Shown one piece after another: positions 33,052 to 52,602 of a DNA stretch of 64,000 bases. The position numbers and the translations under genes were made by a program. How positions within the stretch are numbered: the stretch's first letter is position 1; each line of letters starts with the position of its first letter. The notes under the pieces are model-generated. The model was not told where the DNA came from, did not search any database, and was given only the letters and a program-made list of their open reading frames with translations. The stretch spans positions 103,832-167,831 of the IMG/VR virus record IMGVR_UViG_3300023179_004209. One strand, written 5' to 3'. The DNA is from a virus. Taxonomy: Duplodnaviria > Heunggongvirae > Uroviricota > Caudoviricetes.

Positions 33052-34734
33052 TTAGATTTGATCTAGGTCAGATACGTAGATCTTACCATAGAATTCAGGA
33101 CGTACTACCTTCTTAGCATAACGAGTCAATACACCTCTACGTGGAGTGAAGTTAATTGGATCGTATACCAATGGAGTTTGTACTAGTGGGATGTATGGGG
33201 AATATACAGCACCGGTTTCTAGGAAGTTATTTCCACGGAAGCCCATCAAGATGGTGTTTTCTTGCATATATGGGTTCTTGTAGACTTGGAAGCGACTTGC
33301 GAAGCTACCAACACGACTTACGCCCATTGCGAACTTAGCAGAATCACCATCAGTATTTACAACGTATCCTGGGATTGATTCCAAGATGGTTGCTACGTCT
33401 GGACCTACTACTAGGAAGTTTGCACCACCACGAAGAGTCAATTGATGAATCTTGTTGCTTACCTTTTGGATCTTGTTGCCAAGAGTTTGGTACCAAGTGC
33501 TCTTTACGTAAGCAGTACGATTTGTTGAATCGTTGTTTACGGTGAAAGTTGGGAGACCATTAGAGTCATTTGCACCCTTGATGATGTCCTTACCGATTAC
33601 TGCAGACCATCCTTCAGTTGTCAATGCTGGAGCAGCATTGATCAACATGTCCATGATTTCAAGATCAATTTCCATTGATACATATTCACTCAAGAGAGCA
33701 GTCAATTCTGCTTCTGCATCAATGCTGTGGTAAGCATTCAAGTCTTGAGCCAATTCTGGGGTCCAGACTGCCTTTAACTTACGGGTCTTAGCAACGATTG
33801 GTTCGCTCTTAAGTTCCAAGTTAACTTCTGGAATGTTGATATCGGTACCTTGGTTAATACCGCCACTTGAACCAGCTGTTCCTTTGAATGGATTGGTATC
33901 TTCAAAGTCACCACGGGTACTGTCAGTAGGTTGTACAGTGTAAGTTAATACAGCATTTCCTGGGAAAACTGGTGATTGTGAACCAGTTACGATGAATTGA
34001 ATTCTGTAATATGGAGAAGCCAAAGAACCTGTATTGTATACCTTGGTCAATTCATTGATTTGTAGTGTTGGATCGATTCCTGAACCGCTCAAAGCAAAAC
34101 TTCTTACTGCGTTCAAGTCAATTCTTGCACTGCTATTGTCGCCAACGTTTACGGTAATCTTTTTCCAAGATCCTGTAGCAACATAGGTTGAATCCAAATC
34201 AACATCACTGAAACTTACAGAACCAGTTGCATATGAAAATGATGCTGATTGATAGTTTTCAGTATAAGCATAACGACCTACACCATATAGACCGTTTACA
34301 GCTGCATCGGTAGAACCAAGTTTGGTGCTGTTACCACCGAATAGTGATTGACCGTTATAACCGTTTTGACCTGGCAAATTACCACGGGTAGTACCATACT
34401 TGAAGTCAAGATAGAAGATTAGACCGGATGGTAGGTTCATTGGTTGTACTGAAACGAATTCCTTAGCGGAAATTTCAGCGAACACACGGCGAACCAATGG
34501 AAGAGCTACGCCTGCCCATTGTTCACTGTTTGCAGAAGTACCAGTAGCGGTAGCTTCGTTCAACAATTGTTGTGCTTGATTTTCAAGCAAAATGGACATG
34601 TGTGCCTTATCGACACCTTCTAGTCCTTCAAGAAGACCAGTCTTGTCCCATTTGCTTTGCAATCCACGGGTTTCAGTCATCAACTTAGCCTGTGGATTCA
34701 TATTATTTGTCAATAATGATTTAATATCACTCAT
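33052..34734 (-). CDS. gp23: Major capsid protein (T4 gp23 family)
   Basis: 'LPLVRRVF', 'VQPMNLPSGLIF', 'AKTRKLKAVWTPELAQDLNAYHSIDAEAEL', 'YSPYIPL', 'FTPRRGVLTRYA'. Confidence 0.97.
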   Translation of the reverse strand: MSDIKSLLTNNMNPQAKLMTETRGLQSKWDKTGLLEGLEGVDKAHMSILLENQAQQLLNEATATGTSANSEQWAGVALPLVRRVFAEISAKEFVSVQPMNLPSGLIFYLDFKYGTTRGNLPGQNGYNGQSLFGGNSTKLGSTDAAVNGLYGVGRYAYTENYQSASFSYATGSVSFSDVDLDSTYVATGSWKKITVNVGDNSSARIDLNAVRSFALSGSGIDPTLQINELTKVYNTGSLASPYYRIQFIVTGSQSPVFPGNAVLTYTVQPTDSTRGDFEDTNPFKGTAGSSGGINQGTDINIPEVNLELKSEPIVAKTRKLKAVWTPELAQDLNAYHSIDAEAELTALLSEYVSMEIDLEIMDMLINAAPALTTEGWSAVIGKDIIKGANDSNGLPTFTVNNDSTNRTAYVKSTWYQTLGNKIQKVSNKIHQLTLRGGANFLVVGPDVATILESIPGYVVNTDGDSAKFAMGVSRVGSFASRFQVYKNPYMQENTILMGFRGNNFLETGAVYSPYIPLVQTPLVYDPINFTPRRGVLTRYAKKVVRPEFYGKIYVSDLDQI

Positions 34735-37405: not shown

Positions 37406-39088
37406 TTATCTTAATTTGAAAATGTTCTTGTTTTTACTACTAATAGATTCAAATAGTTTATTTTCTGGTATAATCTTATCTTTTATAAATTTTATTTGGT
37501 TTTTATTTATACCAACAAAGATTACATTGTTAATTTTATTATTGACTTGTATTATATTTTTAAGTGTTAAAAATATGCTCTTGATCATTTTACCAATAGC
37601 ATCATCAATTTTTTGAGATAAATAATTTGAAATTAATTGATTTAATTCGGTTACATTTTTACCGCCGGATAATGTAGAATTTTTAGAAAACTCTATTGCT
37701 AAAGTATTGATTAGTTTACGTTTAAATAACATTCCCAATTTATTTACTTCCACTAATTTAATTTCAGTAAACAATTTAGGTTCTTCTGATTTTAATGCAT
37801 TGGAATTTAAAGAAAATTCAAATCTAATTCTATTTTTCATATTACATTTTATTTTATATGATGTAATATTATCATTATCAATTTTAAATGCCATTAATGT
37901 TTTTGACTCATTTGGTAATCTAGTATTAGAATTATCATTTAACTTTGAATTTAATATTTTTTCCGGATAAATTATAGTTAATCCGCTTAAAAATTCGTCT
38001 GTAATATATTCATCCAATTTGGCTTTTAATTCGTTTGTTAAACCATCTGCAGCGGAACCAGATACAGGTTCTGTTGTTGGAGTAGATGTACCTACAACTT
38101 TTTGATCTATATAATCAACAATATATTTAAATCTTTCTCCTTGTCTTTTCATCCAGTTAAGAACATTTTCTGGATTATAATTTGACATGTCTGGATTTGG
38201 TTGTATCTTAAAATACCAACTCAAATCTTTGAGAAAATCCAAGTATAATTCGGATTGTTCAGAATTTAATGCTTCCTTAATTATTCTTTCAGGAATTACA
38301 GATCTTCTTGCAGGATTAATTATTAAAGTTGCACTATAAGAAGTTCCCGCATCTTTATTTGCTACAGTAGAAATTGAATCAGAATATAATGTTTTATAAC
38401 TTACTGAATTATTTATTGATGCGGATATAGTTGAATAAGCATTCAAAAATTCAGGTTTAATCCAATATTCTAAAAATTGACCTCTTGATTCGGTTCCAAT
38501 ATATTTTTTATCTATTACGTTATTATTTACTAAACCTGAAACATCAAGATTACCTTTAAAAGTAGAACTAGTAACAAATAAAATAGGAGATATTTTATAT
38601 GCAGCTGTATATCCACTATTAATTGTTATATTATCAGCTCTTGGTTGTTGAAAAATTTTGATTAAATCGGTATTTAAATTTTTAGGAGTAGTAATATATT
38701 CTCTAGACTCTGTAGATGTAGATCCAGTAACAGAACCTGTTGTAGCAGTTGTAGGTGTCGTAGATCCAGTAACTGAGCCTGTAACAGCAACTGAACCAGT
38801 AGGTGATGCAGTTGGAGTTACTGATGATGTCGATGCAGTAGAACTCGTCGTAGTTGTAGAACCGGATGGTGTAGTTAATATTGGTGATGTAGCTACTGAT
38901 GGCGTAATTTTTTCAAACTTTTCTTTAAATCTTAAAAATAAAGTTTCTACTCCTTTATCTTTACTATCAGTCGTTACATCTCCAGCGCCTAATACATTTT
39001 TAATTCCTTGACCAAATCTTGATAGATTTGCTCTAAACATATCTGATGCTGCTTCATTAACTTTACGATTCATATCATTTAATTTCAC
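37406..39088 (-). CDS. Hypothetical protein with a Thr/Ser-rich linker (560 aa)
   Basis: Overlaps the protease stop; TGSV repeats; several xxE sites. Confidence 0.7.
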   Translation of the reverse strand: MKLNDMNRKVNEAASDMFRANLSRFGQGIKNVLGAGDVTTDSKDKGVETLFLRFKEKFEKITPSVATSPILTTPSGSTTTTSSTASTSSVTPTASPTGSVAVTGSVTGSTTPTTATTGSVTGSTSTESREYITTPKNLNTDLIKIFQQPRADNITINSGYTAAYKISPILFVTSSTFKGNLDVSGLVNNNVIDKKYIGTESRGQFLEYWIKPEFLNAYSTISASINNSVSYKTLYSDSISTVANKDAGTSYSATLIINPARRSVIPERIIKEALNSEQSELYLDFLKDLSWYFKIQPNPDMSNYNPENVLNWMKRQGERFKYIVDYIDQKVVGTSTPTTEPVSGSAADGLTNELKAKLDEYITDEFLSGLTIIYPEKILNSKLNDNSNTRLPNESKTLMAFKIDNDNITSYKIKCNMKNRIRFEFSLNSNALKSEEPKLFTEIKLVEVNKLGMLFKRKLINTLAIEFSKNSTLSGGKNVTELNQLISNYLSQKIDDAIGKMIKSIFLTLKNIIQVNNKINNVIFVGINKNQIKFIKDKIIPENKLFESISSKNKNIFKLR

Positions 39089-39692
39089 CTAATATATCAC
39101 GAATTAAATCTTCTACCTTTTCCCACTTGTTTGTCAATGGATTTTTTACAACTCCTTCTTGTAAAGATTGTTCACCGGATGGAAACATAAATGCACCTTT
39201 AGTAGATGGATTGCTAACAAAGTCAAATGCAATCAATTCAAAATCATCTTGAACTTCATCAGTTCCTTCATGTACATTCTTTTTAACACTACCCATTCCT
39301 CTGGAACTAATACCCAACTTAATACCACAATTGAGTAATTCTTTTAAAATATTGCCACTTGGTGTAGTTAAAATTTCTACTTCGCCCATTAAATCATTGC
39401 CATTCCAATACATTCTTTTTACATTATGACTAACATTCTTTAAATTCACAACGCTACTATCTGGATGGTCTAATTCACCAAGTGCTCTTCTTTCTCTGAT
39501 GAAATTTTCATCATATTTTTGAGCTTCTCTTTGTAAAATTTCTTTGCCGTATACTCTACCGTTTTGATTTTTTGCTTCGGCTCTTTGTAGAACACCTTGT
39601 ACAACCAATGGTCCACCTTTGGACATTGCTTCTTTAAGTACAGATTTATCTACATCAAATGTTATACAATCTACTAATAGTTTTTTATTCAT
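39075..39692 (-). CDS. gp21: Prohead protease (T4 gp21 family)
   Basis: 'NQNGRVY', 'ALGELDHP', 'VSH', 'GISSRGMGS', 'DFVSNPST..A'. Confidence 0.95.
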   Translation of the reverse strand: MNKKLLVDCITFDVDKSVLKEAMSKGGPLVVQGVLQRAEAKNQNGRVYGKEILQREAQKYDENFIRERRALGELDHPDSSVVNLKNVSHNVKRMYWNGNDLMGEVEILTTPSGNILKELLNCGIKLGISSRGMGSVKKNVHEGTDEVQDDFELIAFDFVSNPSTKGAFMFPSGEQSLQEGVVKNPLTNKWEKVEDLIRDILGEIK

Positions 39693-40400: not shown

Positions 40401-41267
40401 TTAAAGTTGATTTTTGATTTCCTTTATCAATTCATATGATAACAATAGAACCATTACTTGATTGTCTTTAACGAGATTAAATTTTTTAACATTATCAAGT
40501 TGTTTTACAGTTTCATTAATTTTAATCTTAATGACATCATCTGAAATTTTATTGGTTAATTCAGCCAATTGTTTCTTAACATTAGTTACTTCACTGTCAA
40601 TTAATGTTTTCAATGAATTTGTATTGCTTATACTATTAATATATTCTTTTAACAAATTCTTTTGACTTGAATCCAAATCTTTATATTTTTCATTTAAAGA
40701 TTCTACTAATATCTTATAACTTAAAAGACGAACTTCTTCATTTTGTTGTTTATAAACATTGATCATTTCGTCTTCTGTTTCTTTAGCAACTTTTTTAATG
40801 CCACATAAATTTTCAACAATACAAGTTCTAGATGTAACAATTTCTTTTACATCAAACTTTGAATTTTTATCACTATGATTTTCAAAAATTTTATATATTG
40901 AAGCTAAGACTTTATAATTTTTAATACTAGACTTAAATAAATCATTAATTGGATAAACATCTTTGATTTCTTTGATTAAATTATATTTTTCAGATGTTAA
41001 CGACTTTTGATTTAGTTTGTCTCTTTGTTTTAATACAATTTCAATATATTTTTCAGCTTGTGTTTCGTCTTTTGCAACTTCATTAACTAAAAAGTTATAC
41101 AATTGTAACTCTTTGCCTAATTCTTTATTCTCAGAAAAATATTTAAATAGAATATTTTTGGCAAAAGATTCGTCTTTTCCAGACAAAATATCTGATGTCA
41201 CTTGTCGAGTGAGCAATTCAAACAATATTCCTGTGTTTCTAAACTTTGAATGCTTAGCTTTGTGCAT
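40401..41267 (-). CDS. Hypothetical helical head-assembly-region protein (288 aa)
   Basis: Long ORF downstream of the portal gene with its own TATTTATA motif. Confidence 0.75.
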   Translation of the reverse strand: MHKAKHSKFRNTGILFELLTRQVTSDILSGKDESFAKNILFKYFSENKELGKELQLYNFLVNEVAKDETQAEKYIEIVLKQRDKLNQKSLTSEKYNLIKEIKDVYPINDLFKSSIKNYKVLASIYKIFENHSDKNSKFDVKEIVTSRTCIVENLCGIKKVAKETEDEMINVYKQQNEEVRLLSYKILVESLNEKYKDLDSSQKNLLKEYINSISNTNSLKTLIDSEVTNVKKQLAELTNKISDDVIKIKINETVKQLDNVKKFNLVKDNQVMVLLLSYELIKEIKNQL

Positions 41268-41343: not shown

Positions 41344-43269
41344 TTATTCAATAATATTTTTTTCGTCTAACATTGATAGACTTTTTGTTTCGTTTAAAAG
41401 TTCACTTTTGATTTGAGAAGTAGTTTTTAAAAAGTCATTTAAACCCTCTAAACTCAATGGAGATTTGGTTTTGGAACCTTGTCTAAGTGGATCAGTTTGT
41501 GATTGAGATATATTTTCTTTACTTCCTAGTGGATCATACCCAAATGCAATATCTTTTCTCTTTTTATGAGATCCTTTTTGTGAAGGTCTTTTGTATGTTC
41601 TAAGTGATTTTTCAGTTAATGCAGGAGCTTCACCGCCACCAGCTTCTCCTCCTTTTTCTCCACCGGTTTCAGCACTTGGTTCCGTACTACCTGATTCTGC
41701 ACCAGGTTCACCTCCACCAGTTTCGCCACCCATTTCTCCACCACCACTACTTGATCCGCCTTCTTCAGGTTTAATTTTGTTGAATGGTTTAGCTGGATCA
41801 ATACCTTCATCTTCAATTTGTTTGAATCTGTAAGATTGTTTAGCATCTTCAACCAAATCATTCTTTTGGATATCTACATCTTCTTCAGAAATCTTAAATA
41901 CATTTTCATATATCCACTTCTTACTAAATAACTTAGTTTCCATCATGTCTTTAGAAAGATTTACTTTATCTTGCCAAATAGCAATCTTTTCTTTTTCAAA
42001 AATCACTGACGGATTTGTTAATTCTAATGTAAAATCAACCAATGATGCATCTTTATATCCTTGAGCATACAAATGTACCATTGCAATTTTGTTCAATTCA
42101 CTAATCAATATTCTTTGTACTCTATTAACAGTCTTAGCAAATCTTACATCTTCACTTGCAAGTGTTGCTTTACCACTCAAATCTTCTTCATAACCCAAAA
42201 ATGCTTTTGGAATCTTTAATGCAGCTAACATCTTGTTACGAAGATATTCAATGTCATCAATACCATTGAATTCCATACCACTCAATGGTTCAATACTGGT
42301 ACCACTATCACTACCACGAACTGGTAAATAAAAGTCTTCTACCATGTTTTGAAGATTGAAACGAAGATTGTAGTCTCCAGTTCTTTCATCAATATATGGA
42401 ACTTTTTTCATCTTATCCATCAACTTTTGCATATATTGATCTACTTCAGATGGTGGAATATTGCCAACATCAACCTTAAAAATTCTCTTTTCAGGAGCAC
42501 GCATTACACGATGAATTAACATTGCATCTTCCATCAATGATAATTGTTTCCAAACTCTTCTGCCACCTTCAATAATACTCTTACCATATGGAATGAAATT
42601 ACTATCACTCAACATTCTAAAATGAGCAACTTGATAATTTTCCAATTCTTCTAATCTTCCACCTTCCGGCAAATTGATTTGGAATTTAACATAGTTCTTA
42701 TTTGTTAAATCACTATTTTCTACACGGGTAACATTGTATGCACTAATTGGTTCTACCATGTAAACACCATATTCTGGACTAATATACATTTTTAAATAGA
42801 AATCACCGTATTTTACAAGATTTCTAGTCCAACTCCACATGTTAAATTCAATATTAAGAATATCATAGAACAAATTATAAAGAATTTGTTTGATATTATC
42901 ATTACTTGAATGAATTACAAGAATTTCCCCCAATTCATTCTTAGTAACACATTCATCTGCATAAATATCCAATGCAGATGCAATGATTGGGTCCATATCC
43001 ATAGTATCATAATCACGGAATAATTCAATACGAGCAGCTTGATAACTTAATGTAAAGTCTCTGCTATATTGATTATATGAAGATGTTCTAATTCTATTAA
43101 AACGATCTCTAAGTGTATTACGGTCAGTAGCATACATTACTTCATCTGTATCTACTACCTTCAATTTCTTACCACCAACATTACGAATTACTGCATCAGT
43201 GGAAAAAAGTCTCTTTAATTTTGAATATAAAGATCTTTGTTTTAATATTTGAAATTCTTCGTTTGCCAT
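41344..43269 (-). CDS. gp20: Portal protein (T4 gp20 family)
   Basis: 'LMEDAMLIHRVMRAPEKRIFKVDVGNIP', 'EDFYLPVRG', 'DDIEYL..K...ALKIP'. Confidence 0.96.
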   Translation of the reverse strand: MANEEFQILKQRSLYSKLKRLFSTDAVIRNVGGKKLKVVDTDEVMYATDRNTLRDRFNRIRTSSYNQYSRDFTLSYQAARIELFRDYDTMDMDPIIASALDIYADECVTKNELGEILVIHSSNDNIKQILYNLFYDILNIEFNMWSWTRNLVKYGDFYLKMYISPEYGVYMVEPISAYNVTRVENSDLTNKNYVKFQINLPEGGRLEELENYQVAHFRMLSDSNFIPYGKSIIEGGRRVWKQLSLMEDAMLIHRVMRAPEKRIFKVDVGNIPPSEVDQYMQKLMDKMKKVPYIDERTGDYNLRFNLQNMVEDFYLPVRGSDSGTSIEPLSGMEFNGIDDIEYLRNKMLAALKIPKAFLGYEEDLSGKATLASEDVRFAKTVNRVQRILISELNKIAMVHLYAQGYKDASLVDFTLELTNPSVIFEKEKIAIWQDKVNLSKDMMETKLFSKKWIYENVFKISEEDVDIQKNDLVEDAKQSYRFKQIEDEGIDPAKPFNKIKPEEGGSSSGGGEMGGETGGGEPGAESGSTEPSAETGGEKGGEAGGGEAPALTEKSLRTYKRPSQKGSHKKRKDIAFGYDPLGSKENISQSQTDPLRQGSKTKSPLSLEGLNDFLKTTSQIKSELLNETKSLSMLDEKNIIE

Positions 43270-43290: not shown

Positions 43291-44886
43291 TTACAATAAC
43301 CAAGTTAGGTTTTCTTTTTTATCTGTTATTTTTCCTGTTGTCATTTGCCATGCTTCTTGGCTACTAATAGTTTGTGCTTTATAAATATTTTGAGTCCCAC
43401 CGATTCTTGTAATACCTCCCAACATCGATCTATTTAAATCCATACTTTGTTGTCTTAACTTTAATGCTGTATCTCTTACCCATAATCCAATACTCATTGC
43501 CATTACCAAATCATCATTATAACCTTTCATTGCAGCTACTTTATTACCGTCCCAAATAAACACGGATAATTCATCCAAAAATCTAATAGATCTTACTTCT
43601 ACAGATCTTTCTCTAAAATAAGTTTCTAATTTTGAAATCAATAATGGTCTGGTTTTCTGACTATTAGTAAAACCAGGAATCATTTTCTTTTCATCTCTAT
43701 TGATCTTATTAGTCAACTGTCTTTCTACATCTACATATTGTAGGTCTGCACTACTATAGAACGTATTTGGATATTGTCTATCTATTATTTGTTGTAAAAC
43801 AGCCCAACCAACATTCGCATTTTCTACAATTAATAAAGCATTATTATAATCAGTAGCAACACTAACCAACATATTACCATAATCTTTAGTGCCAATCTGT
43901 CCTTTATATTCTGCTACTTGAGTCAATGATTCTACATCAATAACTTGAAATGCACTATAATCTGCACCATCGCCTCTTGCAACGTCAGCACTAACTATAT
44001 AATTTCTACTATAATCAGGATATTCCCAAATCCAATAACCATGATCCAATCCTCTCATTTCAATTGGATCTTTTACCTTACTTTGTTTATAAAAATCAAT
44101 AGTAGCAACATCAACAATTCCATTACCAGTAGTTGCAAAGTCACAATCACATTCTTGTGCAGCACCTTTTACACCAGATAGTTCGGTTTGTTTATCTCTC
44201 CAAGCTTGATCTCTTTCTGGATGTAAATGCCATGGAAGTCTAATTGTATTAAATTTATTTTCCTTGGCTTCTGCTTTTACCCAAGTTTGGTGAAAGAAAT
44301 TACCAACACCATTTGGTGTACTTAACATGATTGCTCTACCACCAGTACTTAATGTATATTGAGCAGATAACCAAATTTCTTCAATGTTATCAATGAATGC
44401 GGCTTCGTCAATAATCAACAATGACAATGCAGAAGAACGACCTGATGTACCAGCAGATGATACTGCTTTAATTTGCGAACCGTTTGTCAATCTTAAACTT
44501 AATCTATTATCTTCTTGTTCTTTTACTTTCAACCAAGAAGGAAGATTATCATTTGCAAATCTAACACGGGTAACAATTTCTTTAGATGTTTCTTGATTAA
44601 TACTAATACAAAGAACATTTTTATCTTTATGAAATACCATTAACCACAAACTGTATGCTGCGGTTAATGTACTAATACCCATTTGTCTGGACTTTAATAT
44701 GATATTAAAATCGTGTTCAACCAAGTCTGTTAAAGCTTCTTCTTGAAACGGATACAAATCAAAGTTTACAGTTCCACGAATAGGATGTTGTATCTTAACA
44801 TACTTTTTCATGAAGTAAATTGGATCTACAAGACATTTCTTATACTCCTCTTTAATTACTTCTTTAAGTGTTTTTGGCGTACTCAT
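43291..44886 (-). CDS. terL: Terminase large subunit (T4 gp17-like)
   Basis: Walker A 'KSRQMGIST', Walker B 'LLIIDEAAF', coupling motif 'STPNG', nuclease 'ADVARGDGADYS' and 'DDLVMA'. Confidence 0.96.
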   Translation of the reverse strand: MSTPKTLKEVIKEEYKKCLVDPIYFMKKYVKIQHPIRGTVNFDLYPFQEEALTDLVEHDFNIILKSRQMGISTLTAAYSLWLMVFHKDKNVLCISINQETSKEIVTRVRFANDNLPSWLKVKEQEDNRLSLRLTNGSQIKAVSSAGTSGRSSALSLLIIDEAAFIDNIEEIWLSAQYTLSTGGRAIMLSTPNGVGNFFHQTWVKAEAKENKFNTIRLPWHLHPERDQAWRDKQTELSGVKGAAQECDCDFATTGNGIVDVATIDFYKQSKVKDPIEMRGLDHGYWIWEYPDYSRNYIVSADVARGDGADYSAFQVIDVESLTQVAEYKGQIGTKDYGNMLVSVATDYNNALLIVENANVGWAVLQQIIDRQYPNTFYSSADLQYVDVERQLTNKINRDEKKMIPGFTNSQKTRPLLISKLETYFRERSVEVRSIRFLDELSVFIWDGNKVAAMKGYNDDLVMAMSIGLWVRDTALKLRQQSMDLNRSMLGGITRIGGTQNIYKAQTISSQEAWQMTTGKITDKKENLTWLL

Positions 44887-45542
44887 TGATTTAATCTATC
44901 CAAAACCATTTGTTTGGCTTTAGTTTCAATTTCAGAGTTATAATTTAATTTATTCAACTCTTCGTTTGCTTTTGCAATATTTTCCTCAACATTTTTTAAA
45001 TCTTCTTTTAGATCTGACAATACTTTTTGTATTTGTGTAGTATCATCCGTCCAAAATTCTTGACTACCATCATCATTAAAAAATTGCAATTTTTCTTCTG
45101 GATTTTTTTCCAAATATTCAATACTATCAGTAATATTTTTCTTAAAATCTTTCATTTCAGAAAGCATACTGTTATAGATTTTATATCTTTCATAATCCGC
45201 ATATACACCCAATACTTTTAATTTACTGTCAAATGAAATAGTACAATCGTAACATTTGCCTGTTTTAGGATAAAACTTATCATCAAGATAATTACCAAAC
45301 TTCATATCTGCATTACAGATACTACATCTTTGATCAATTTTTATTTGTCCAAGTTTGGATACTTTTCTTTTACTTCCATTTTTCCAAACCCATTTATTTC
45401 CTTGACCGTCTTCCCATTCTTCACCTTCTTTTCTTTTACTGTTGTTCAAGTTAGGATCATAACCAACTTGAATAAATGGACGATTTCCCTCGACATAATC
45501 TTTAACTATGTCAAGATTGCTTTTTCCTGTTGCTCTTTTCAT
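44883..45542 (-). CDS. Hypothetical zinc-finger/coiled-coil protein
   Basis: CSIC...CYDC; ATGA overlaps with both neighbours. Confidence 0.7.
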   Translation of the reverse strand: MKRATGKSNLDIVKDYVEGNRPFIQVGYDPNLNNSKRKEGEEWEDGQGNKWVWKNGSKRKVSKLGQIKIDQRCSICNADMKFGNYLDDKFYPKTGKCYDCTISFDSKLKVLGVYADYERYKIYNSMLSEMKDFKKNITDSIEYLEKNPEEKLQFFNDDGSQEFWTDDTTQIQKVLSDLKEDLKNVEENIAKANEELNKLNYNSEIETKAKQMVLDRLNQ

Positions 45543-48511
45543 AACTTTACTTTTAATCTGTCTAATTCCTTTTTGAAATCATCTAAGATCTCAGTTCTTT
45601 TGTTTTTATAACGAAAAGTATTACCTTTCACTAATTTAATTAGTTTTTCTAAAGTGTTAATGTCATTAAATGTTACATTATTGCCAAATAAAAATTTAGC
45701 AACGTCATCCATATCGGTATAAACAGTTTTTATATTTTGTTTTTCTTGTTTACCTTTTGCATTTATTATAACATCTGCACTTTGAAGACCTTTTTTCCAA
45801 TTCATTTGATATCTCTTCATCTTATTTGGATCTTCGGTAGGTTCATAACTATGTGACATAATATTCATTAATAGAATATTTCTTAATGCAGCTTTATACT
45901 TAGAATCTGGTGCTCCAGATAAAGCTTTAATCATGAAATTTAAATCACCGATCATCAAATCGATTTGTACATATCCATCTTCTTTTGGAATTTCTGTAGA
46001 TTTTACTGGATTTCCATCTTCATCTACAATAGGTACATTTAAGTGTAATTGATCTAATCCAGTATTTATTTTAAAAGCTGGTGTTGGAACATTTGACGGA
46101 GTATTTGCTTCTACATGTTGTTTTAATTTTTCATAAAACATCTTTTTATCATAATCATAATTTACACCAAATAATTCATTCAATTGTTCTGTGGATACCG
46201 CAACATCAATATCACCTAATATTGGCTTTGATTTATTTCCGATTATTTCATATTTTAAAGAATCAAGATTCCATATTTTAAATCCATTTTTTACAGTAGA
46301 ATCCAAATATTGTTTTGGTAAATCACTGTTTGCAGCTACTGCATTGCCACCTTCTGTAATTAAAAATTCTTTTAATATATCATTAACAATTTTATTTCCC
46401 AAATCAGCATGTTTTTTGATTTTATCAATAGATGCTTGAGTTTCTGGAGTGGTTGCTTTCTTTTCTTTCTTTGAATATTGTTCAATCATTTTTTCGGCAT
46501 ATTTGTCTTTTATAGCTTTAATAAATGATTGATAATCAAATCCCAAATCAGTAAGAATACCATTCTTATCAAGAGTTCTTGCAAATCCAAGAACGCCTGT
46601 AGTTAAATCTTTTAATTTAACATCATTTGGATTTACACCACCATGTGCAGATAAATTTGGATCAATATTAGTAATCTTTTTGTTAAACAATTCGGCCAAA
46701 AAGTCTGCCAAATCTCTTAAAAATGTACGAGGACTATTTGATATCAATTTATCCACAACATCTTTTCTTAACATTGGAGATACAATTTTACCATCCTTAA
46801 ATTTGGCTCTTACACCTGTATCACCAATTCTTATATTAAGAACTTCTGCCAATGCAGAATACATTCCTCCCATCGTAAATCCTTTTATACCTCTTTCAGG
46901 AGTAAATCTAGTAGCAAACCAATCTTTATATATTTTTGTAGTATATAATAAATCTAATTGAACCCAACTATCTTCTTCAATTTTAATTACAATTTGTTTA
47001 CCATCAGATCTCTTTGCACTTTCAATATCAATGTAATTTTGACCACTCGTTTCAATAAATTTAATTACATTAGTTATATATTCTTTTTTTGTATCACTAC
47101 CATCATCTTTTGATTCAATAGGTATTACGACCATTACATCAATATCACCGTAAGTTATTTGTTTTTTATCATGTTGATCTTGTTTATAATAACCAGCTGA
47201 ACCCAATATTTGATAATCTTTAATTGGAGTTAAAGGTACATTACTTAAAAACATATTCAAATCAGCTAAAAAATCTTTAAACTTTTCAGTTGCTTTTTCA
47301 ATTGTATCGGGTGACAAAATTGTCTTTGATGTTAATTCTGGTTTTAACCAACCACCTTCATCAATTGGTTGTTTATGTGCAGCTCTATTTGCTGCGCTGA
47401 ATTTGGAACGAGAAACATACTTAATGTCACCTTCTGGATGAGAGAATACATAACCTTCGCCTCCAGGTTGATTGCCTATATATGATTTAATTTCAGTATC
47501 TTGATTATCAATTTGATTAATAATTTCTTCTTTGACTGACATTATTTCTACAACTACTTTCCATAAAGATTCAAATCCGTCACGATTACTATTTACATAA
47601 TCAGTAATCTTCTTTTTCATTGCTCCTGTAAGATTACTTTGATCTACCCATTGTAGAAAATCATCGCCAATATTCACTAATCCAGTATCAACTTTACTAT
47701 TCAAATATTTATATAAAATATCTGGAAAGTTAGTCATTTTCATACTAGCCAATTTAGAAGGATTAATAAAATCATCTATATTTCTAGCATGTTTATTTAT
47801 ATAAAGTATAATATCTTTTAATCGTTTTTCATTTACATCAGGTGGATTGTGTACAGATATCGGTGGTATTACCAATAATTGTTTACCTTGAAATATATTG
47901 TAATTTGTAATTGCAGTTTCATTTCCAAAACTATCCACTTCTCTATGAACTACAACCGCAGCTTTACTTTGCGCAATCTTTCTTCCCAATTCAGAATTGA
48001 TGTCAACTGCATAAGTTACAATATTTGGTTTAAAAACATATCGACCATTTTCAATTAATGGCGTATTAAAATATAACAAATCTCCCTTAAAATAACCTCT
48101 AAATGTAGATGGAACTGCCGATTCAAATATTGAAAATGCATTTTTCATGTTTTGAACGAAAAATCTATATTCGTCGGTTTTAACACTTTTGCCTCTATTC
48201 AAAAACATTTGTTCCAATTCTTCTGGAGAAGTTGGTCTGCCATTATAACCTTTAGCAACAAATCCACTTTTATCTGTTAATACAAATTTACCTTCGTCAT
48301 TTCTACCAAATACAACTGCAGGAGAACCATCCCATTTCATTGTAACATTTTTATATCCCCCTTGTTCTAATTCAATAAAACTTTTAATAGAACGAATTGC
48401 TCCTTTTGATCCTTCCCAGAAAATCAAATCTTCAGCGTGATCTATACGAGTAGCTTCGTTTATCAATATATTAGATACCAGAAATTGTTCTAAGTTATTC
48501 AGCTTTATCAT
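45539..48511 (-). CDS. Multidomain protein: ATP-dependent ligase-like domain plus two Pol-beta-type nucleotidyltransferase domains
   Basis: KWDG / FKGDLLY / EGYV / IKYV ligase motifs; 'LGSAG..GDIDV..VQLDL' and 'IGN..GDIDV..VQIDL'. Confidence 0.7.
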   Translation of the reverse strand: MIKLNNLEQFLVSNILINEATRIDHAEDLIFWEGSKGAIRSIKSFIELEQGGYKNVTMKWDGSPAVVFGRNDEGKFVLTDKSGFVAKGYNGRPTSPEELEQMFLNRGKSVKTDEYRFFVQNMKNAFSIFESAVPSTFRGYFKGDLLYFNTPLIENGRYVFKPNIVTYAVDINSELGRKIAQSKAAVVVHREVDSFGNETAITNYNIFQGKQLLVIPPISVHNPPDVNEKRLKDIILYINKHARNIDDFINPSKLASMKMTNFPDILYKYLNSKVDTGLVNIGDDFLQWVDQSNLTGAMKKKITDYVNSNRDGFESLWKVVVEIMSVKEEIINQIDNQDTEIKSYIGNQPGGEGYVFSHPEGDIKYVSRSKFSAANRAAHKQPIDEGGWLKPELTSKTILSPDTIEKATEKFKDFLADLNMFLSNVPLTPIKDYQILGSAGYYKQDQHDKKQITYGDIDVMVVIPIESKDDGSDTKKEYITNVIKFIETSGQNYIDIESAKRSDGKQIVIKIEEDSWVQLDLLYTTKIYKDWFATRFTPERGIKGFTMGGMYSALAEVLNIRIGDTGVRAKFKDGKIVSPMLRKDVVDKLISNSPRTFLRDLADFLAELFNKKITNIDPNLSAHGGVNPNDVKLKDLTTGVLGFARTLDKNGILTDLGFDYQSFIKAIKDKYAEKMIEQYSKKEKKATTPETQASIDKIKKHADLGNKIVNDILKEFLITEGGNAVAANSDLPKQYLDSTVKNGFKIWNLDSLKYEIIGNKSKPILGDIDVAVSTEQLNELFGVNYDYDKKMFYEKLKQHVEANTPSNVPTPAFKINTGLDQLHLNVPIVDEDGNPVKSTEIPKEDGYVQIDLMIGDLNFMIKALSGAPDSKYKAALRNILLMNIMSHSYEPTEDPNKMKRYQMNWKKGLQSADVIINAKGKQEKQNIKTVYTDMDDVAKFLFGNNVTFNDINTLEKLIKLVKGNTFRYKNKRTEILDDFKKELDRLKVKL

Positions 48512-49277
48512 ATGGTTTTAAAAATGTTTTATCAAATACTGTTATAGCTTTATTATATGAACGAGTTGTTTCATCCAATGTATTGTCGGTAAATTGCCAG
48601 TTCCAAAACAATTCATTTGGTGTTTTGAATCCAAAAAATTGAAGTACTTCTTTTTGTGTTTCTGTTACATCTTTACCGTTCCAATTTTGCCCAGTTGCAA
48701 TAAAACCCGCATCAATGTCTTTTACTATATTTTTTTCTCCCAAATTACTATGTCTATTTTCAATCCAAGTTAATCTTTCAATTAATTTTTGATAATAACC
48801 ATTTGCTTGTCCCCATCTTATACTAGCAAAAAATAAAACGGTATCACTTTCAAATAATTCTTTACTTATTTTCCATAATTCATCATTCTTTTCATTTATG
48901 CTAGCCCAACAACGATGATATCCACTTGGATTCTTTTCTTTGTCTTTTAATAGTGCTTTTGCAGTTCCACAATGATTGCCACCAAATTCTCTATTACTAC
49001 TTACATTTCCTTCACATGGAAATATATTTAGTTTGGTAGTGTCTATAAGAGTTACCTTTTCTTTACCCAATAAGTCTTGGATTTTAGTAGCTAGTTGGTT
49101 GCTTTTAGGTACATCTTCTTTATGTTGTGACCATCTATTACTGGTAGTCAATAATAGTACTTTATTCTTATTCCTTAAATAATCAATGGTTTTCTTATAC
49201 TTTTTCGCATAAAAATCCATATCTTGTTCACTAGAAGGCATTTGTGCTTCTAATAATAAGTCAGTTAGCTTAATCAT
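48495..49277 (-). CDS. Flavodoxin-fold NAD(P)H-dependent FMN reductase / WrbA-Isf-like protein
   Basis: 'LLLTTSNR..S..LA', 'LNIFPCEG', 'DELWKI..ELFESDTVLFFASIRWG..YQKLIERL'. Confidence 0.8.
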   Translation of the reverse strand: MIKLTDLLLEAQMPSSEQDMDFYAKKYKKTIDYLRNKNKVLLLTTSNRWSQHKEDVPKSNQLATKIQDLLGKEKVTLIDTTKLNIFPCEGNVSSNREFGGNHCGTAKALLKDKEKNPSGYHRCWASINEKNDELWKISKELFESDTVLFFASIRWGQANGYYQKLIERLTWIENRHSNLGEKNIVKDIDAGFIATGQNWNGKDVTETQKEVLQFFGFKTPNELFWNWQFTDNTLDETTRSYNKAITVFDKTFLKPYDKAE

Positions 49278-49284
49278 CGTACAA

Positions 49285-49292
49285 TATAAATA
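49285..49292 (-). promoter_or_regulatory. TATTTATA late-gene motif
   Basis: Exact match after the sheath terminator, 7 nt before the ATG at 49277. Confidence 0.72.
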
Positions 49293-49304
49293 GATTTAAC
49301 AAAG

Positions 49305-49334
49305 AAAAAACCCCACTTATTTCTAAGTGGGGTT
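49305..49334 (-). terminator. Intrinsic terminator after the tail sheath gene
   Basis: Stem AACCCCACTTA / TAAGTGGGGTT with an A-run at 49305-49310. Confidence 0.85.
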
Positions 49335-49350
49335 CACTGTTTAGCGTTGT

Positions 49351-52300
49351 TTAACCATTAGGGAAGGTTGCGCCTGTTGGTAGAATGTTGAAGTCAAGTA
49401 CGATGAATTCAGCAGTCTTAGTTGGTTGTAGATAGATTTGACCGTATAGGATATTTCTGTCAACCAAATCAGGAGTATTGTTTGTATCATCCATTACAAC
49501 TTGGAAAGCGTACAATCCACTACGTTGTTGTACAGATTCCAAATATGGATTTACGATACTCAAGAAACGGTTTCTTGTAGCTGCTACATTTTGTTCGAAT
49601 ACCAAGAACTTACTGCTACTTGCAATGAACTTCTTGAGTGCGATTAACAATCTACGAACATTGATTCTATCAAGAGCACTTGGTTGAATTTGAAGTGTCT
49701 TTTGACCCCATACGCAGATACCTTGACCAGGGAATGCTGCGATTGGATTTACACGACCTTCATACAATGTATCTCTTTCACTATGAGTTGTTCTATCAAG
49801 AACTTGAACTGCTTGTGCAATTCCACCACGATTTAAACCAGCTGGAGCGAACCATTCAGCAGCAGCATTGTCGTTAGCAGCATAAACTGCTGGCATTACT
49901 ACTGAAGGAGGTACACTTACAATCTTGTTTAAGTTTGTATCTAGAATTTTAACCCATGGATAATATGTAGAAACATAACTACTATCAATTGTAGATACAT
50001 CATTTACTGCTGCATCAATCAATCCTACTGTTTGATTACTTGATGGGAAGACGATATTATCCATGATGTAGAAACAATCACCACGGGCTTCGCACATATC
50101 TGTTACCAAATCGGTAACATAACTGTGTTGTTCGTGGAAAATGCCTGGTGTAACGATCAAATTGATGTCAAATTCATCGGCATTTCCAAGAGCACCTACA
50201 CATTGTTTGTAAGCGATTGAACCTGCACTATTGATATTTGTACAATTCAAACCTTGAGTATTACCTGCGATAATATCCGATCCAACATTGATTGGAATTG
50301 CTGGTGATTGACCGTCAAATCCACCTTGGAATCCTACTACAAACTTACGCATCTTAACATATGTAGCTTCGTTAGTTGCATCATATGTTGAAGGAATACT
50401 ACCACTCAATGAAGCAGCAAGTAGTGAACCAGTTCCCATATAAGTTGAACTTGTTGATTCCAAATCAAATGCGATATTATATCCTACAGTAGCACCAAAT
50501 GGTAGAGGAGCAAAATATTGTTCTGTATCAACCTTTACTCCTGCATTTGCAGAACTAGTTGGATATAGAGCAGTCAATTCACTATCAGCACCTAGTGGAA
50601 TATCACTCATTACGGTACCGGATGGATATTTACCTGGAGCCATTCCATAAATACTTGCTTTGCTATATTGTACCACTGGAACATAATTTCCAATTGTACC
50701 TCCAAGTGGAGTAACATAAGCTTCATTACCATAAGGAACAGCAGATACTGGATATGGTACAGTAGCCATTTCAATTCTTACATACTTACTCAAGTTTGTA
50801 TAAGTACCGAATTCAATGATCTTGCCAGCATATGTAATAAAGTTATATCTATCACCAATTCTACGAGCAACAAAGTTTGAAGAATTTGGATCTAGACTCA
50901 AGTTTTGGAAGATTTCCAAATACTTTGGTTTCTTATCAGTATCACTATAAGATCTTACAGCAAGTGTGAATGAACCCCAATCACTTCCTGCAACAGTGCC
51001 AGACAATTTAACATTACTGATTTCAATCTTATATTGTTTATTTGTATTTGTACCATCACTCAAAGTATGTACTTTGAACAATTGATATTTTGTTACGGAA
51101 CCAGGATTTGCATTACCACTCCATGGAGCAATTCCTTGTGAAAGAATCCAAGGTGTTGCTGCACTTGTTAGTCCATATTGAGAATCACCAGCATTCAAGT
51201 TTGTTGAGTATTGATCAGTAAACTTCAATACTTCACCAGTTGCGAATGAACTGGATGGTAGATATGCACCATAGACTTTCCAACCTGGATTTCCACTATT
51301 CAATTCATCATTTACTTTTTGAATTGAATCTTCGAATGTCTTATACAAATAAGCTGCTTCAATCTTGGCACCAGAAACTTGATCGTCTTGATTACCAACT
51401 GTTGCATCATTTCCAAATACATTTGTGATGTAATTTGAATCTGCTGGGTTCAATGAGAAATCATAATATCCGATCAAAGAAACATCTTGTGCTAAAACCA
51501 ATTGGAAATTACCTAAAGATGTAGGATCTATAGAACCACTATAATTTCCAGATGTTGCGTTCTTTTGATTTAGTACTGAACCACTAAAACCTGGAGCATT
51601 GAAACTACTATCCAATGTGCCATATTGAGTATTTGCTAATACTGCTAATACTCTTGGTTTGTTAGTTACTGCGGTTGGATTACATGGATCGGCTGGTGTT
51701 GACCAAGAAGCACTGAACGCTCCAGTAATTTTACCAAATGAACCACTAATTACACCCTTTAGGTAAACTTGTGTTCCACATCCAGTTGAAGATCTTAGAG
51801 CAAAAATACTACCACTTACCAATGTAATATTAGTACCAACCAAATTTCCATCAGAATTTGTAATTGTTACACTATTTGCAAGTGAAGCGGAGAAATTTGA
51901 AGTAGTTGATGTAGATTCCGCAATTGCTTGTAATAATTTTTCATAATTGGTATATGCACCATTTCCTTGATAAGAAGATGTTACATGTGATGCAGCAAAT
52001 GATACGGAACCTATAGTGAAACTATAAGTTTGACCACTATTATATAAACTTCCGTTTGGTGAAGTAACACTTAATGTAGTATCATCTGCTGCGGTAGAAT
52101 TGAATTTTGCGGTAAATGTTGCACCAGATATAAATGATAATGTTCCGTTGTCAGTACCACTTCCTGAAATATAGGTAAATGTACTTGAAATATTTGCACT
52201 ATCATATAGTACATATGATGAACCGCTGTTCAAAGCACCAGCAGAACCGCTTCTTGCCCATGTACCTGGTTGTGCCCAAATTACGAATGGGTTAATTTGT

Positions 52301-52602
52301 CTATATCCAGTCAATGCACCTACACGACAAACAGTTACGAATCCTTTTTCATTTAAGTATTCTTTTGCAGTGTATGGACCATAATAAACACCATCAGCAA
52401 CACCGAACTTTTCTTCAAGATCGGCAGTATTAGTGATTAATGTTGGTGCGAAACCAGGACCTTTTGGAAATGGAGCAAGCACTACTGCTCCAATTTCAGC
52501 AACACCTTGTGCTACTCCGCTTAGGTCATTTTCTCTTGTAAATACTCCTGGACTGACTATACGGTCAACAGGACTAAATTTTCCTCCTTCAGTTATTGGC
52601 AT
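49351..52602 (-). CDS. gp18: Contractile tail sheath protein (T4 gp18-like)
   Basis: 'SPGVFTRENDLS', 'YYPWV', 'WFAPAGLNRG', 'WGQKTLQ..SALDRINVRRLL', 'PTKTAEFIVLDF'. Confidence 0.96.
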   Translation of the reverse strand: MPITEGGKFSPVDRIVSPGVFTRENDLSGVAQGVAEIGAVVLAPFPKGPGFAPTLITNTADLEEKFGVADGVYYGPYTAKEYLNEKGFVTVCRVGALTGYRQINPFVIWAQPGTWARSGSAGALNSGSSYVLYDSANISSTFTYISGSGTDNGTLSFISGATFTAKFNSTAADDTTLSVTSPNGSLYNSGQTYSFTIGSVSFAASHVTSSYQGNGAYTNYEKLLQAIAESTSTTSNFSASLANSVTITNSDGNLVGTNITLVSGSIFALRSSTGCGTQVYLKGVISGSFGKITGAFSASWSTPADPCNPTAVTNKPRVLAVLANTQYGTLDSSFNAPGFSGSVLNQKNATSGNYSGSIDPTSLGNFQLVLAQDVSLIGYYDFSLNPADSNYITNVFGNDATVGNQDDQVSGAKIEAAYLYKTFEDSIQKVNDELNSGNPGWKVYGAYLPSSSFATGEVLKFTDQYSTNLNAGDSQYGLTSAATPWILSQGIAPWSGNANPGSVTKYQLFKVHTLSDGTNTNKQYKIEISNVKLSGTVAGSDWGSFTLAVRSYSDTDKKPKYLEIFQNLSLDPNSSNFVARRIGDRYNFITYAGKIIEFGTYTNLSKYVRIEMATVPYPVSAVPYGNEAYVTPLGGTIGNYVPVVQYSKASIYGMAPGKYPSGTVMSDIPLGADSELTALYPTSSANAGVKVDTEQYFAPLPFGATVGYNIAFDLESTSSTYMGTGSLLAASLSGSIPSTYDATNEATYVKMRKFVVGFQGGFDGQSPAIPINVGSDIIAGNTQGLNCTNINSAGSIAYKQCVGALGNADEFDINLIVTPGIFHEQHSYVTDLVTDMCEARGDCFYIMDNIVFPSSNQTVGLIDAAVNDVSTIDSSYVSTYYPWVKILDTNLNKIVSVPPSVVMPAVYAANDNAAAEWFAPAGLNRGGIAQAVQVLDRTTHSERDTLYEGRVNPIAAFPGQGICVWGQKTLQIQPSALDRINVRRLLIALKKFIASSSKFLVFEQNVAATRNRFLSIVNPYLESVQQRSGLYAFQVVMDDTNNTPDLVDRNILYGQIYLQPTKTAEFIVLDFNILPTGATFPNG

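Follow-up and report, generated by a model that had tools for sequence, protein, structure and literature searches.

The gene considered here lies in the genome of an uncultured T4-like freshwater phage (296 kb, about 347 ORFs), and was analysed within a window, i.e., the whole stretch of 64,000 nucleotides to which all coordinates refer. The gene, P0001, encodes a chain of 990 aa (113 kDa when intact) in which a short leader is followed by three domains, D1, D2, and D3. The original prediction had placed an open reading frame at 45539 to 48511. Its existence and its length of 990 aa were borne out; its strand is minus, with the start at 48511 and the end at 45539, and the plus-strand frame is stop-riddled. 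The features of the locus and of the nearby head module are as follows (a slash marks a candidate cutting point).

33052..34734, minus strand: major capsid protein of the gp23 type; its candidate propeptide site, LLNE59/AT, lies 22 aa upstream of LVRRVF
39075..39692, minus strand: T4 gp21-type prohead serine protease (Peptidase_S77, E 8e-27; phrog_207, E 2e-53)
45539..48511, minus strand: the whole gene P0001, 990 aa, three domains
45542..46351, minus strand: D3 (aa 721-990), the other Pol X-like domain, belonging to the GGN(V/I)FK type, which is widespread
46346..46366, minus strand: linker 2, FLITE/GG (aa 716-722), a low-confidence junction, with a second conserved site, LKE715, just before it
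46352..47356, minus strand: D2 (aa 386-720), Pol X-like palm and thumb (aa 388-633) and then a helical extension (aa 634-715), beginning with GGW
47345..47368, minus strand: linker 1, PIDE/GGWL (aa 382-389), a low-confidence junction, with hxE in 8 of 8 orthologues
47357..48454, minus strand: D1 (aa 20-385), DUF6267 ligase-type covalent nucleotidyltransferase, as assigned by Pfam, AF2, and motif invariance
48455..48511, minus strand: leader MIKLNNLE...LINE/A (aa 1-19), a candidate capsid-targeting propeptide with low pLDDT and a conserved site
48495..49277, minus strand: 260-aa gene upstream of P0001 in the same transcription unit, with the leader MIKLTDLLLE/A
49285..49292, minus strand: late-promoter-like motif, reading TATTTATA in the coding direction and TATAAATA on the plus strand, placed 8 nt upstream of the 260-aa gene
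49305..49332, minus strand: likely terminator, a GC-rich hairpin and T-run 3′ of the sheath gene, read from sequence

P0001 shares 17 nt with the 260-aa gene upstream of it and 4 nt with the TerS-like gene that follows, and is operonic with the latter and TerL downstream of the late-promoter-like motif. This motif repeats immediately upstream of many minus-strand late genes, with 34 matches against 18 expected, a number that was reached in 0 of 100 shuffles. The transcription unit likely runs from the 260-aa gene through P0001 and the TerS-like gene to TerL, its start being set by the sheath-gene terminator. A related 215-kb contig carries a domain-swapped gene in the equivalent position. The closest cultured relatives share only 23-26% identity with the target. 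The translational coupling to the TerS-like gene and TerL, together with the same gene position in the related contig, would suit a protein that is not cargo at all, i.e., an uncleaved multi-domain late enzyme of DNA maturation that acts in the cytoplasm and mends gaps and nicks of concatemers, by filling and sealing, for packaging by the neighbouring terminase.

D1 belongs to DUF6267 (PF19782), as had been guessed beforehand: the Pfam HMM scores 113.3 bits (cut-off 27; E 2e-32) and covers aa 22-378, corresponding to profile positions 3-374 of 376. The ligase motifs quoted in the original prediction were all found (KWDGS at aa 59, GDLLY at 143, GEGYV at 351, and IKYV at 363), and motifs I (KxDG), III, IIIa, IV (EGYV), and V (K-x-V) follow the canonical order, their numbers being assigned by order and pattern rather than by residue-level superposition. 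Among 117 DUF6267 domains, K59, D61, G62, Y167 (motif IIIa), E352, G353, and R368 (motif V) are invariant, and D144 of motif III (GDLLY) as well as K364 and V366 of motif V are kept in at least 90%. K59 of KxDG (codon 48335-48337) is the lysine predicted to be adenylated. D1 also has an invariant H-x-E-D upstream of motif I and a helical insert of about 108 residues (aa 228-335) between motifs IIIa and IV.

At the sequence level D1 matches neither a Pfam family of ligases nor a ligase chain in the PDB, and Foldseek alone gave weak matches (best E 0.12). Its AF2 model (pLDDT 92.2) was compared with 48,161 PDB representatives by VIA-align, and the top 19 were all RNA or DNA ligases (Z 7.1-5.4, 163-194 residues), such as 5cot (7.1 over 186 aa), REL1 (6.6), T4 Rnl2 (6.3), T4 Rnl1 (5.6), and DNA ligases (5.4-5.7); capping enzymes scored 5.0-4.4 in the same search. 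The Z scores (at most 7.1) are individually middling, and the case for the fold lies in the clean ranking and the motifs combined. In the model, an OB domain is absent after motif V; beyond K364 there is one helix (aa 368-379) and then a disordered linker, and on that trait D1, as modelled, is RNA-ligase-like. The model, the ligase-only top 19, and the motif set are all in agreement with the ligase-type nucleotidyltransferase fold without an OB domain that had been proposed. By sequence and predicted structure, D1 is a ligase-type nucleotidyltransferase with a complete conserved set of active-site motifs.

With regard to the other two domains, the quoted Pol-beta-type motifs are also all present, i.e., LGSAG at 436, GDIDVMV at 455, VQLDLL at 517, IGNKS at 757, GDIDVAV at 766, and VQIDLM at 848. 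Two Pol-beta-superfamily domains with intact carboxylate triads had been proposed, and the catalytic residues are indeed conserved: in D2-type sequences, G437, S438, D456, and D458 occur in 18 of 18 and D520 in 17 of 18, while the D3 triad (D767, D769, and D851) is invariant in 71 D3-type sequences, with G758 of the hG[GS] motif present. In the joint model of D2 and D3 (pLDDT 91.4), D2 aligns to Pol beta residues 139-335 (Z 10.5-10.7) and to the whole of ASFV Pol X (Z 10.3-10.5, 170-173 of about 175 residues, rmsd 3.3, 17-18% identity). The nine top-ranked PDB representatives for it all belong to the family X polymerases and align to model residues 3-248, and the neighbours over palm and thumb include Pol beta, ASFV Pol X, TdT, Pol lambda, and Pol mu. 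Foldseek returned 166 matches at E<=1e-3 with Pol beta and Pol lambda on top. Other nucleotidyltransferases match the palm alone, over about 100-124 residues with Z<=8.4. Because D2 resembles family X over palm and thumb and other Pol-beta-fold enzymes over the palm only, the suggestion that D2 and D3 are CCA-type enzymes is unsupported; no CCA-adding enzymes were found among the best 50 structural representatives for D2, an absence that is no proof by itself.

The palm-only matches bear on a further proposal, that the Pol-beta-fold domains, like CD-NTases and OAS, make or divert cyclic or linear oligonucleotides and that the ligase-fold domain modifies a protein or nucleotide. OAS1, OAS2, and several CD-NTases do occur among the D2 neighbours (Z 5.7-8.3). 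However, they rank below all nine family X representatives, and the C-terminal subdomain of D2 is thumb-like, not the helical lobe of OAS/cGAS, which makes a role in nucleotide signalling very improbable.

D3 was related to D2 by hhalign (probability 95.7%, E 1e-8, 150 columns) and by a jackhmmer profile of D3 that matches D2 at 1e-10 to 1e-27; secondary-structure elements come in equal order in the model of D2 and D3, and a stand-alone ESM Atlas cluster matches D3 at TM 0.84. On sequence and model, D2 and D3 are homologous and both Pol X-like with conserved active-site residues, and a thumb in D3 is suggested by its homology to D2 and the order of its secondary-structure elements. Both domains begin at the palm, the 8-kDa dRP-lyase domain and the helix-hairpin-helix fingers being absent, and the GG at the start of D2 aligns with the N-terminus of ASFV Pol X. 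The Pfam families DNA_pol_B_palm and DNA_pol_B_thumb have no match to the target, which has no Pfam match at E<=1 besides DUF6267; language-model leads were weak (scores 0.76-0.84). The predicted folds of the three domains are almost certainly correct, and the domains are likely to be catalytically competent.

The three domains are separated by short junctions. The candidate sites INE19/A, IDE385/GG, and ITE720/GG lie exactly at the domain boundaries, as had been claimed, and pLDDT falls below 50 only at aa 1-19, 382-390, and 716-722 in the models of D1 and of D2 and D3. Low interdomain pLDDT is usual for any linker. The target contains 15 [LIVM]xE tripeptides, and those at 17, 383, 713, and 718, all at boundaries, are the only ones kept in 8 of 8 diverged orthologues, which upholds the conservation expected at the junctions; one further site, at 128 within a helix, is kept in 7 of 8. 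Among the 117 DUF6267 domains, whether internal or N-terminal, P3 of the D1-start site is L, I, V, or M in all 111 sequences with a residue there, P1 is E in 107 of 115, and 87 have A, G, or S at P1′. The conservation of residues in relatives indicates that neither the motifs nor the junction features are due to chance.

Stand-alone homologues of D1, D2, and D3, proposed as a check in the original prediction, do exist and begin at the GG or A points, where they either follow short leaders like the T4 capsid-targeting sequence (CTS) or begin directly with M-GG. The D3-type domains start with hxE/GGN both internally and after a leader of 4-20 aa, while leaderless ones begin M-GG, which places the Glu outside the fold. 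Leaders of 9-12 aa on stand-alone DUF6267 proteins, such as MRLFEFTQPLME, MRAHEFVTE, and MKIIELLTE, each placed directly before the cutting point, resemble the T4 CTS, MKTYQEFIAE (PMC8442874). In some relatives the leader has just 4-6 residues (MLLTE/GG), shorter than the 10-residue T4 CTS, and the hxE motif of such proteins may have another purpose.

The head module provides a candidate enzyme for these sites. The gp21-type protease, which had been expected nearby, is encoded 6 kb from the target, and T4 gp21 is known to cut C-terminal to L/I-X-E, one such site being a Glu-Ala bond (PMC9026906). The LNE/A site of the capsid protein matches the target site and serves as an internal reference for protease specificity. 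In addition, a MIKL-type start (MI[KN]L[TNK][DEN]) occurs in 9 of the approximately 347 ORFs, 4 of them in the head module, and the MIKL leader is thereby common to the target and to unrelated head-module proteins.

These observations also weigh on the cytoplasmic DNA-maturation enzyme introduced above, for which the hxE-G/A motifs would be domain N-caps or generic linker features. In its favour, leaderless relatives are evidently cytoplasmic replication-module enzymes, and neither PF01068 nor PF01653 was detected in the 296-kb genome, in which no canonical DNA ligase was found. It is nevertheless unlikely: unrelated proteins of the head module carry the MIKL leader as well, the hxE motif sits in segments left disordered by the model, the Glu is dispensable in the M-GG forms, and stand-alone members with leaders of 9-12 aa are very like the T4 CTS.

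Since the chain has a head-loading tag and a head-protease site in each linker, it is probably packed into the head, cut into three, and injected; packaging and cleavage are fairly likely from sequence and from the analogy with T4. Briefly, the 19-residue leader would act in the manner of the T4 CTS and bring the chain into the scaffolding core, and the gp21-type protease would cut after E19, E385, E720, and perhaps E715. Three enzymes of about 42, 38, and 31 kDa with the new N-termini A20, G386, and G721 would be released, would remain in the head, and would enter the cell with the DNA. With less assurance, they may act jointly as a fill-and-seal kit on nucleic-acid breaks, the likeliest targets being gaps, nicks, and ends of the incoming phage DNA before phage gene expression. 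A late capsid-targeted polyprotein that yields three injected enzymes of this kind is the best explanation overall, with belief and doubt in it about evenly matched.

It has been reported that T4 IPI, IPII, IPIII, and Alt are CTS cargo that is trimmed by gp21 and ejected with the DNA (PMC3012670, PMC9026906, PMC8442874). As in these internal proteins, the leader of the target is short and N-terminal, ends in L/I-x-E followed by a small residue, and recurs on otherwise unrelated proteins of one phage; a Peptidase_S77 gp21-type protease is present in the head module, and the cargo is enzymatic, as is Alt. On the other hand, the target leader, which begins MIKL, differs in sequence and runs to 19 residues, and the cargo is neither an ADP-ribosyltransferase nor a restriction inhibitor but a set of nucleic-acid enzymes. 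Moreover, the target joins three predicted enzymes in one chain with two extra internal candidate sites, and therefore processing would free separate enzymes besides removing a propeptide.

Polyvalent proteins are likewise multi-enzyme chains of mobile elements that are thought to be delivered with DNA and cut into effectors (Iyer et al. 2017, PMC5512222), and their 2H domains were never seen associated with RNA ligases in that study. In BFVD, D2 is closest to a phage protein of 1096 aa that contains a ParB/Srx domain, a module characteristic of polyvalent proteins. In the target, Pfam showed no embedded peptidase and no MuF or portal fusion, and the prohead protease would do the cutting.

At the level of single domains, D1 shares with RNA ligases of the Rnl2/Rnl5/REL1 type the adenylyltransferase fold, the motif order, and the lack of an OB domain, and differs from them in having no sequence match, an insert of about 108 residues, and the H-x-E-D. 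ASFV Pol X is a minimal family X polymerase of 174 aa that works with a viral ligase in base-excision repair. Like it, D2 consists of palm and thumb without the 8-kDa lyase domain and fingers and is encoded together with a ligase-fold enzyme, whereas the helical extension of about 85 residues, the two copies per chain, the phage host, and the apparent delivery in the virion set the target apart. The Pol X-like modules of this large phage family have a mature N-terminus of Gly-Gly, obtained through predicted hxE cleavage or encoded as M-GG. Cutting by the prohead protease might then activate the enzymes besides releasing them, the free Gly-Gly alpha-amino group acting as the Schiff-base nucleophile of a dRP/AP lyase in place of the 8-kDa domain, so that a lyase-polymerase-ligase kit would be injected; this is a speculative and improbable extension.

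As to the substrate, the original prediction had put forward tRNA or RNA repair, in which D1 would reseal cleaved tRNA or other RNA and D2 and D3 would rebuild or tail RNA 3′ ends against anticodon nucleases or RNA-targeting defences. The best neighbours of D1, which lacks an OB domain, are nick-sealing RNA ligases (Naegleria Rnl, REL1, and T4 Rnl2), TUTases and GLD-2 are found among the D2 neighbours (Z 6.9-8.4), and some Pol X enzymes, such as Pol mu and TdT, accept rNTPs. However, the RNA-ligase and DNA-ligase Z scores of D1 differ by less than 1.7 units, the best being those of RNA ligases, and the tRNA-repair reading fails on the fold of D2, which is that of family X DNA polymerases over palm and thumb, RNA-specific or signalling nucleotidyltransferases matching the palm only and at lower Z. 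A separate T4 Rnl1-type RNA ligase is already encoded elsewhere in the genome. Furthermore, leaderless relatives occur in DNA-replication contexts, i.e., beside gp43/UvsX/gp41 in S-PM2, beside primase and exonuclease in Flavobacterium phage immuto, and beside primase/helicase in Atu_ph07, and D3-type domains elsewhere have a PD-(D/E)XK nuclease or ParB as fusion partner. An injected kit for RNA repair or tailing is unlikely. The Pol X-like fold, the lack of a detected canonical DNA ligase, the separate Rnl1-type ligase, the replication-context relatives, and the nuclease and ParB fusions incline the assignment to DNA; filling and sealing of DNA gaps is thereby weakly preferred to repair of RNA, and DNA as the substrate is put at roughly an even chance. 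The cyanophage DUF6267 proteins are leaderless and located in replication modules, and thus membership of DUF6267 does not by itself make a protein cargo.

DUF6267 and the Pol X-like families are large and uncharacterised: the families involved have 1,273 matches among 1.84 billion representative proteins, no mention of DUF6267 was found in the literature, and the Pol X-like domains D2 and D3 are in no Pfam family. In T4, the capsid-targeting system is known to serve Alt and a few small internal proteins, and here the same logic apparently loads a three-enzyme nucleic-acid repair chain. If confirmed, compact Pol X-like and ligase-like enzymes as well as naturally occurring leaders and linkers that can be cleaved and used to load phage heads with protein would become available, and a function would be given to a ligase-fold family that may replace the DNA ligase not found in this genome. 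Were the lyase proposal true, the injected kit would mend nicks, gaps, abasic sites, or defence-inflicted breaks in the incoming genome before gene expression, representing a new class of virion-borne counter-defence. More generally, confirmation would mean that the DNA of aquatic T4-like phages enters together with polymerase and ligase activities, and would explain in a new way how a genome lasts through the first minutes inside the host.

The target is a single 990-codon ORF (ATG at 48511, stop at 45539-45541) in a virus record of 295,831 bp and 31.7% G+C, whose DNA recurs in metagenomes from lake and other freshwater in several studies. The original prediction had delimited this ORF correctly, but the strand is minus. 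Its gene overlaps both neighbouring genes, in the following order.

Genes around the target (window positions)
58957-59910, minus: primase
55770-58955, minus: fused gp46/47-like nuclease, 1061 aa, with gp47-like (Mre11/SbcD) and gp46-like (Rad50/SbcC) parts
52703-55741, minus: 1012-aa protein, no assigned function
49351-52602, minus: tail sheath
48495-49277, minus: 260-aa protein, no assigned function
45539-48511, minus: target, 990 aa
44883-45542, minus: 219-aa protein at the TerS position
43291-44886, minus: TerL
41344-43269, minus: T4-type portal
40401-41267 and 39698-40399, minus: two proteins, no assigned function
39075-39692, minus: gp21-type prohead protease (Peptidase_S77)
37406-39088, minus: 560-aa protein, no assigned function
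33052-34734, minus: gp23-type capsid protein

Among 50,697 phage records, no match was found to the locus by megablast or to aa 386-990 by tblastn. Contigs of independent freshwater samples span window positions 44800-49400 with zero indels and 88-100% identity, and their base changes are mostly transitions; such transition-rich, indel-free variation fits an intact ORF under purifying selection. Metatranscriptome libraries account for two of the samples, and their contigs bridge both gene junctions without indels, which was discarded as proof of transcription because RNA-library contigs can come from DNA.

A hairpin with a T-run lies after the sheath gene, and the motif TATTTATA occurs 8 nt upstream of the 260-aa gene. 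The same motif is found upstream of many minus-strand genes in the window (34 copies versus 18 expected); read on the plus strand it is TATAAATA, and in many cases a few bases separate it from the gene start that follows (for example at 4342, 6529, 14132, 22256, 26834, 32088, 32979, 37398, 43281, 49285, and 55748). The motif is late-promoter-like, at an unusually short distance from the start codons that leaves almost no 5′ leader. Given the gene overlaps, the hairpin and T-run, and this motif, the target looks like a late gene sharing one transcript with terminase.

The first domain after the leader (D1, aa 20-385) is assigned to DUF6267 by Pfam (113 bits), a family on which no papers were found. 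No Pfam ligase family matches D1, and PDB sequence searches with the whole protein and with a profile of 117 DUF6267 sequences returned nothing meaningful. The AlphaFold model built from the 117-sequence alignment has a pLDDT of 92.2 and a pTM of 0.88, with values below 50 only at aa 1-19 and 382-390. When it was compared exhaustively with 48,161 PDB representatives by VIA-align, places 1-19 were all taken by ligases, led by Naegleria RNA ligase (Z 7.1 over 186 aa) and including REL1, T4 Rnl2, Trl1, T4 Rnl1, archaeal Rnl3, and the DNA ligases I, III, IV, and T7; capping enzymes rank after them. The clean ranking comes from VIA-align only and not from Foldseek, whose list (best E 0.12) is enriched in ligases and not significant alone. 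The Z scores are individually middling, and the case is made by the ranking together with motif conservation: K59-x-D61-G62, Y167, E352-G353, and R368 are invariant in the 117 domains, and D144 and K364 are near-invariant. This combination establishes D1 as a predicted covalent-nucleotidyltransferase domain. In the model it carries a 108-residue helical insert (aa 228-335) and has no OB domain.

The remaining two domains (D2, aa 386-720, and D3, aa 721-990), neither of which is represented in Pfam, were folded together from a rebuilt alignment that left out the most divergent D3 sequences, because MAFFT had aligned stand-alone D2 sequences onto D3. This model has a pLDDT of 91.4, with aa 716-722 as the sole segment below 50. 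Foldseek matched it to 166 PDB chains at E<=1e-3, Pol beta and Pol lambda first, although in such two-domain searches the match lists are filled by D2. By VIA-align, aa 388-633 superpose on the palm and thumb of Pol beta (residues 139-335, Z 10.7) and on nearly the whole of ASFV Pol X (170-173 residues, rmsd 3.3, Z 10.3-10.5, 17-18% identity). The nine best cluster representatives are exclusively family X enzymes (Pol beta, ASFV Pol X, Leishmania Pol beta, TdT, Pol lambda, Thermus Pol X, and Pol mu), whereas GLD-2, OAS, TUTases, CD-NTases, and poly(A) polymerases reach Z<=8.4 in palm-only alignments. BLASTP aligns D2 with D3 at the DxD and QxD motifs only; a D3 profile matches D2 at 1e-10 to 1e-27, hhalign gives 95.7% probability over 150 columns, and the modelled secondary-structure elements follow an identical order. 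Judged by these comparisons D2 and D3 are homologous, a relationship visible to profile methods and not to BLASTP. Both keep the GS motif and three carboxylates. With the palm and thumb of D2 matching family X, D3 homologous to it, and the active site conserved in both, they are, on the models, minimal Pol X-like modules and not generic "Pol-beta NTases". The readings of D2 and D3 as CCA-adding enzyme, TUTase, OAS, or CD-NTase were ranked under Pol X as palm-only matches.

The folds originally predicted, a ligase fold in D1 and the Pol-beta superfamily in D2 and D3, are thus borne out, while the label "RNA ligase plus CCA-type transferases" gives way to "ligase-fold enzyme plus two Pol X-like polymerases".

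In a viral structure library, the neighbours of D2 and D3 are uncharacterised phage proteins, Atu_ph07 gp065, giant-virus Pol X proteins, and a 1096-aa phage protein with a ParB/Srx domain. Proteins among the ESM Atlas and BFVD neighbours combine such a module with a PD-(D/E)XK nuclease (an archaeal cluster), with NTP_transf_2, or, in that 1096-aa protein, with ParB/Srx.

L/I-X-E is the sequence after which the T4 prohead protease gp21 cleaves, with a Glu-Ala bond as the classical case (PMC9026906). The three low-confidence segments of the models end at E19, E385, and E720, each closing a hydrophobic-x-Glu (hxE) tripeptide. The target contains 15 [LIVM]xE tripeptides; four of them, at 17, 383, 713, and 718, are conserved in 8/8 diverged orthologues, and the others are not. 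The 117 DUF6267 domains, N-terminal ones and those inside longer chains alike, have L/I/V/M at P3 without exception, Glu at P1 in 107 of 115, and A/G/S at P1′ in 87. D3-type domains always start hxE|GGN(V/I)FK, internally or after 4-20 residues; a few D2- or D3-type proteins start directly with M-GG, among them Atu_ph07 gp065, which has a stop codon 12 codons upstream. As these M-GG starts show, the fold does not need the junction Glu and hydrophobic residue; both are nevertheless there whenever something precedes the domain. Stand-alone DUF6267 proteins have leaders of 9-12 residues (such as MRLFEFTQPLME|, MRAHEFVTE|, and MKIIELLTE|) resembling the T4 capsid-targeting sequence (CTS) MKTYQEFIAE (PMC8442874), and the CTS is the single conserved feature of the otherwise diverse T-even internal proteins (PMC3012670). 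Stand-alone genes starting at the junction points, a check that the original prediction had proposed for the GG sites, were found for all three domains, and the idea of processing sites passed every computational test applied.

The phage encodes a Peptidase_S77 protease, and its capsid protein has an LLNE59|AT site with the conserved stretch LVRRVF 22 residues further on; the site is at the position where T4 gp23 loses its propeptide. Genome-wide, 9 of ~347 ORFs begin MI[KN]L[TNK][DEN] and form a candidate cargo set.

ORFs with the MI[KN]L leader (window positions, or C1 for the phage's own genome)
45539-48511, minus: target
48495-49277, minus: 260-aa upstream neighbour, leader ends hxE
32363-32974 and 36953-37393, minus: two further head-module ORFs, leader ends hxE
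C1:209402-215559: four paralogues, leader ending hxE, then ..PNIF(I/V)PRRMEDR
C1:269811-270350: one ORF, leader ends hxE

That the target is packaged, cleaved, and injected is well motivated but unproven, and a cytoplasmic role beside terminase is a serious rival. The virion proteome of cyanophage S-CREM2 lists a cytidylyltransferase; DUF6267 is absent from the table, which carries no weight (PMC10665884). No published description of capsid-tagged Pol X-like/DUF6267 protein sets was found in the literature searched.

Related loci differ in composition. In Synechococcus phage S-PM2, the DUF6267 protein (S-PM2d138, L001:5983-7758) lacks a leader and carries a fused cytidylyltransferase-like (HxGH) domain, and its gene adjoins gp43 (DNA polymerase), UvsX, gp41 (primase-helicase), and MazG. 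This cyanophage DUF6267 member is a candidate DNA ligase of T4-like cyanophages, which are not known to have a gp30 homologue. In a related phage, a 215-kb contig encodes a 945-aa protein (L006:10001-12838) at the matching position, after a gp46/47 fusion and a 772-aa gene and before TerS and TerL. Its C-terminal Pol X-like domain is as in the target, and its N-terminal domain is different (signature LFE|GGAFGHLAHPFE ... EKIDGQ) and may represent a second, unrecognised KxDG ligase-like family.

The RNA repair originally proposed finds support in the lack of an OB domain in D1 and in the RNA ligases heading its structural list, by a margin of only ~1.5 Z units. DNA is favoured by the Pol X-type fold of D2 and D3 and by the ligase inventory: neither PF01068 nor PF01653 (ATP- and NAD-dependent DNA ligase families) was found in the 296-kb genome, yet a T4 Rnl1-type RNA ligase is already encoded far from the head module (363 aa, PF09511 E 3.6e-15, C1:287504-288595, L003:1258-2349). 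The genomic company of relatives also favours DNA, as leaderless ones adjoin replication genes in S-PM2, in Flavobacterium phage immuto (primase and exonuclease), and in Atu_ph07 (near primase/helicase), and D3-type domains elsewhere are joined to PD-(D/E)XK nuclease or ParB. Pol X-like, DUF6267, and HxGH-type nucleotidyltransferase domains are recurrently fused or adjacent, in either order, which argues that these modules serve one pathway. For the enzymes of the target, the likeliest job would be the filling and sealing of DNA breaks.
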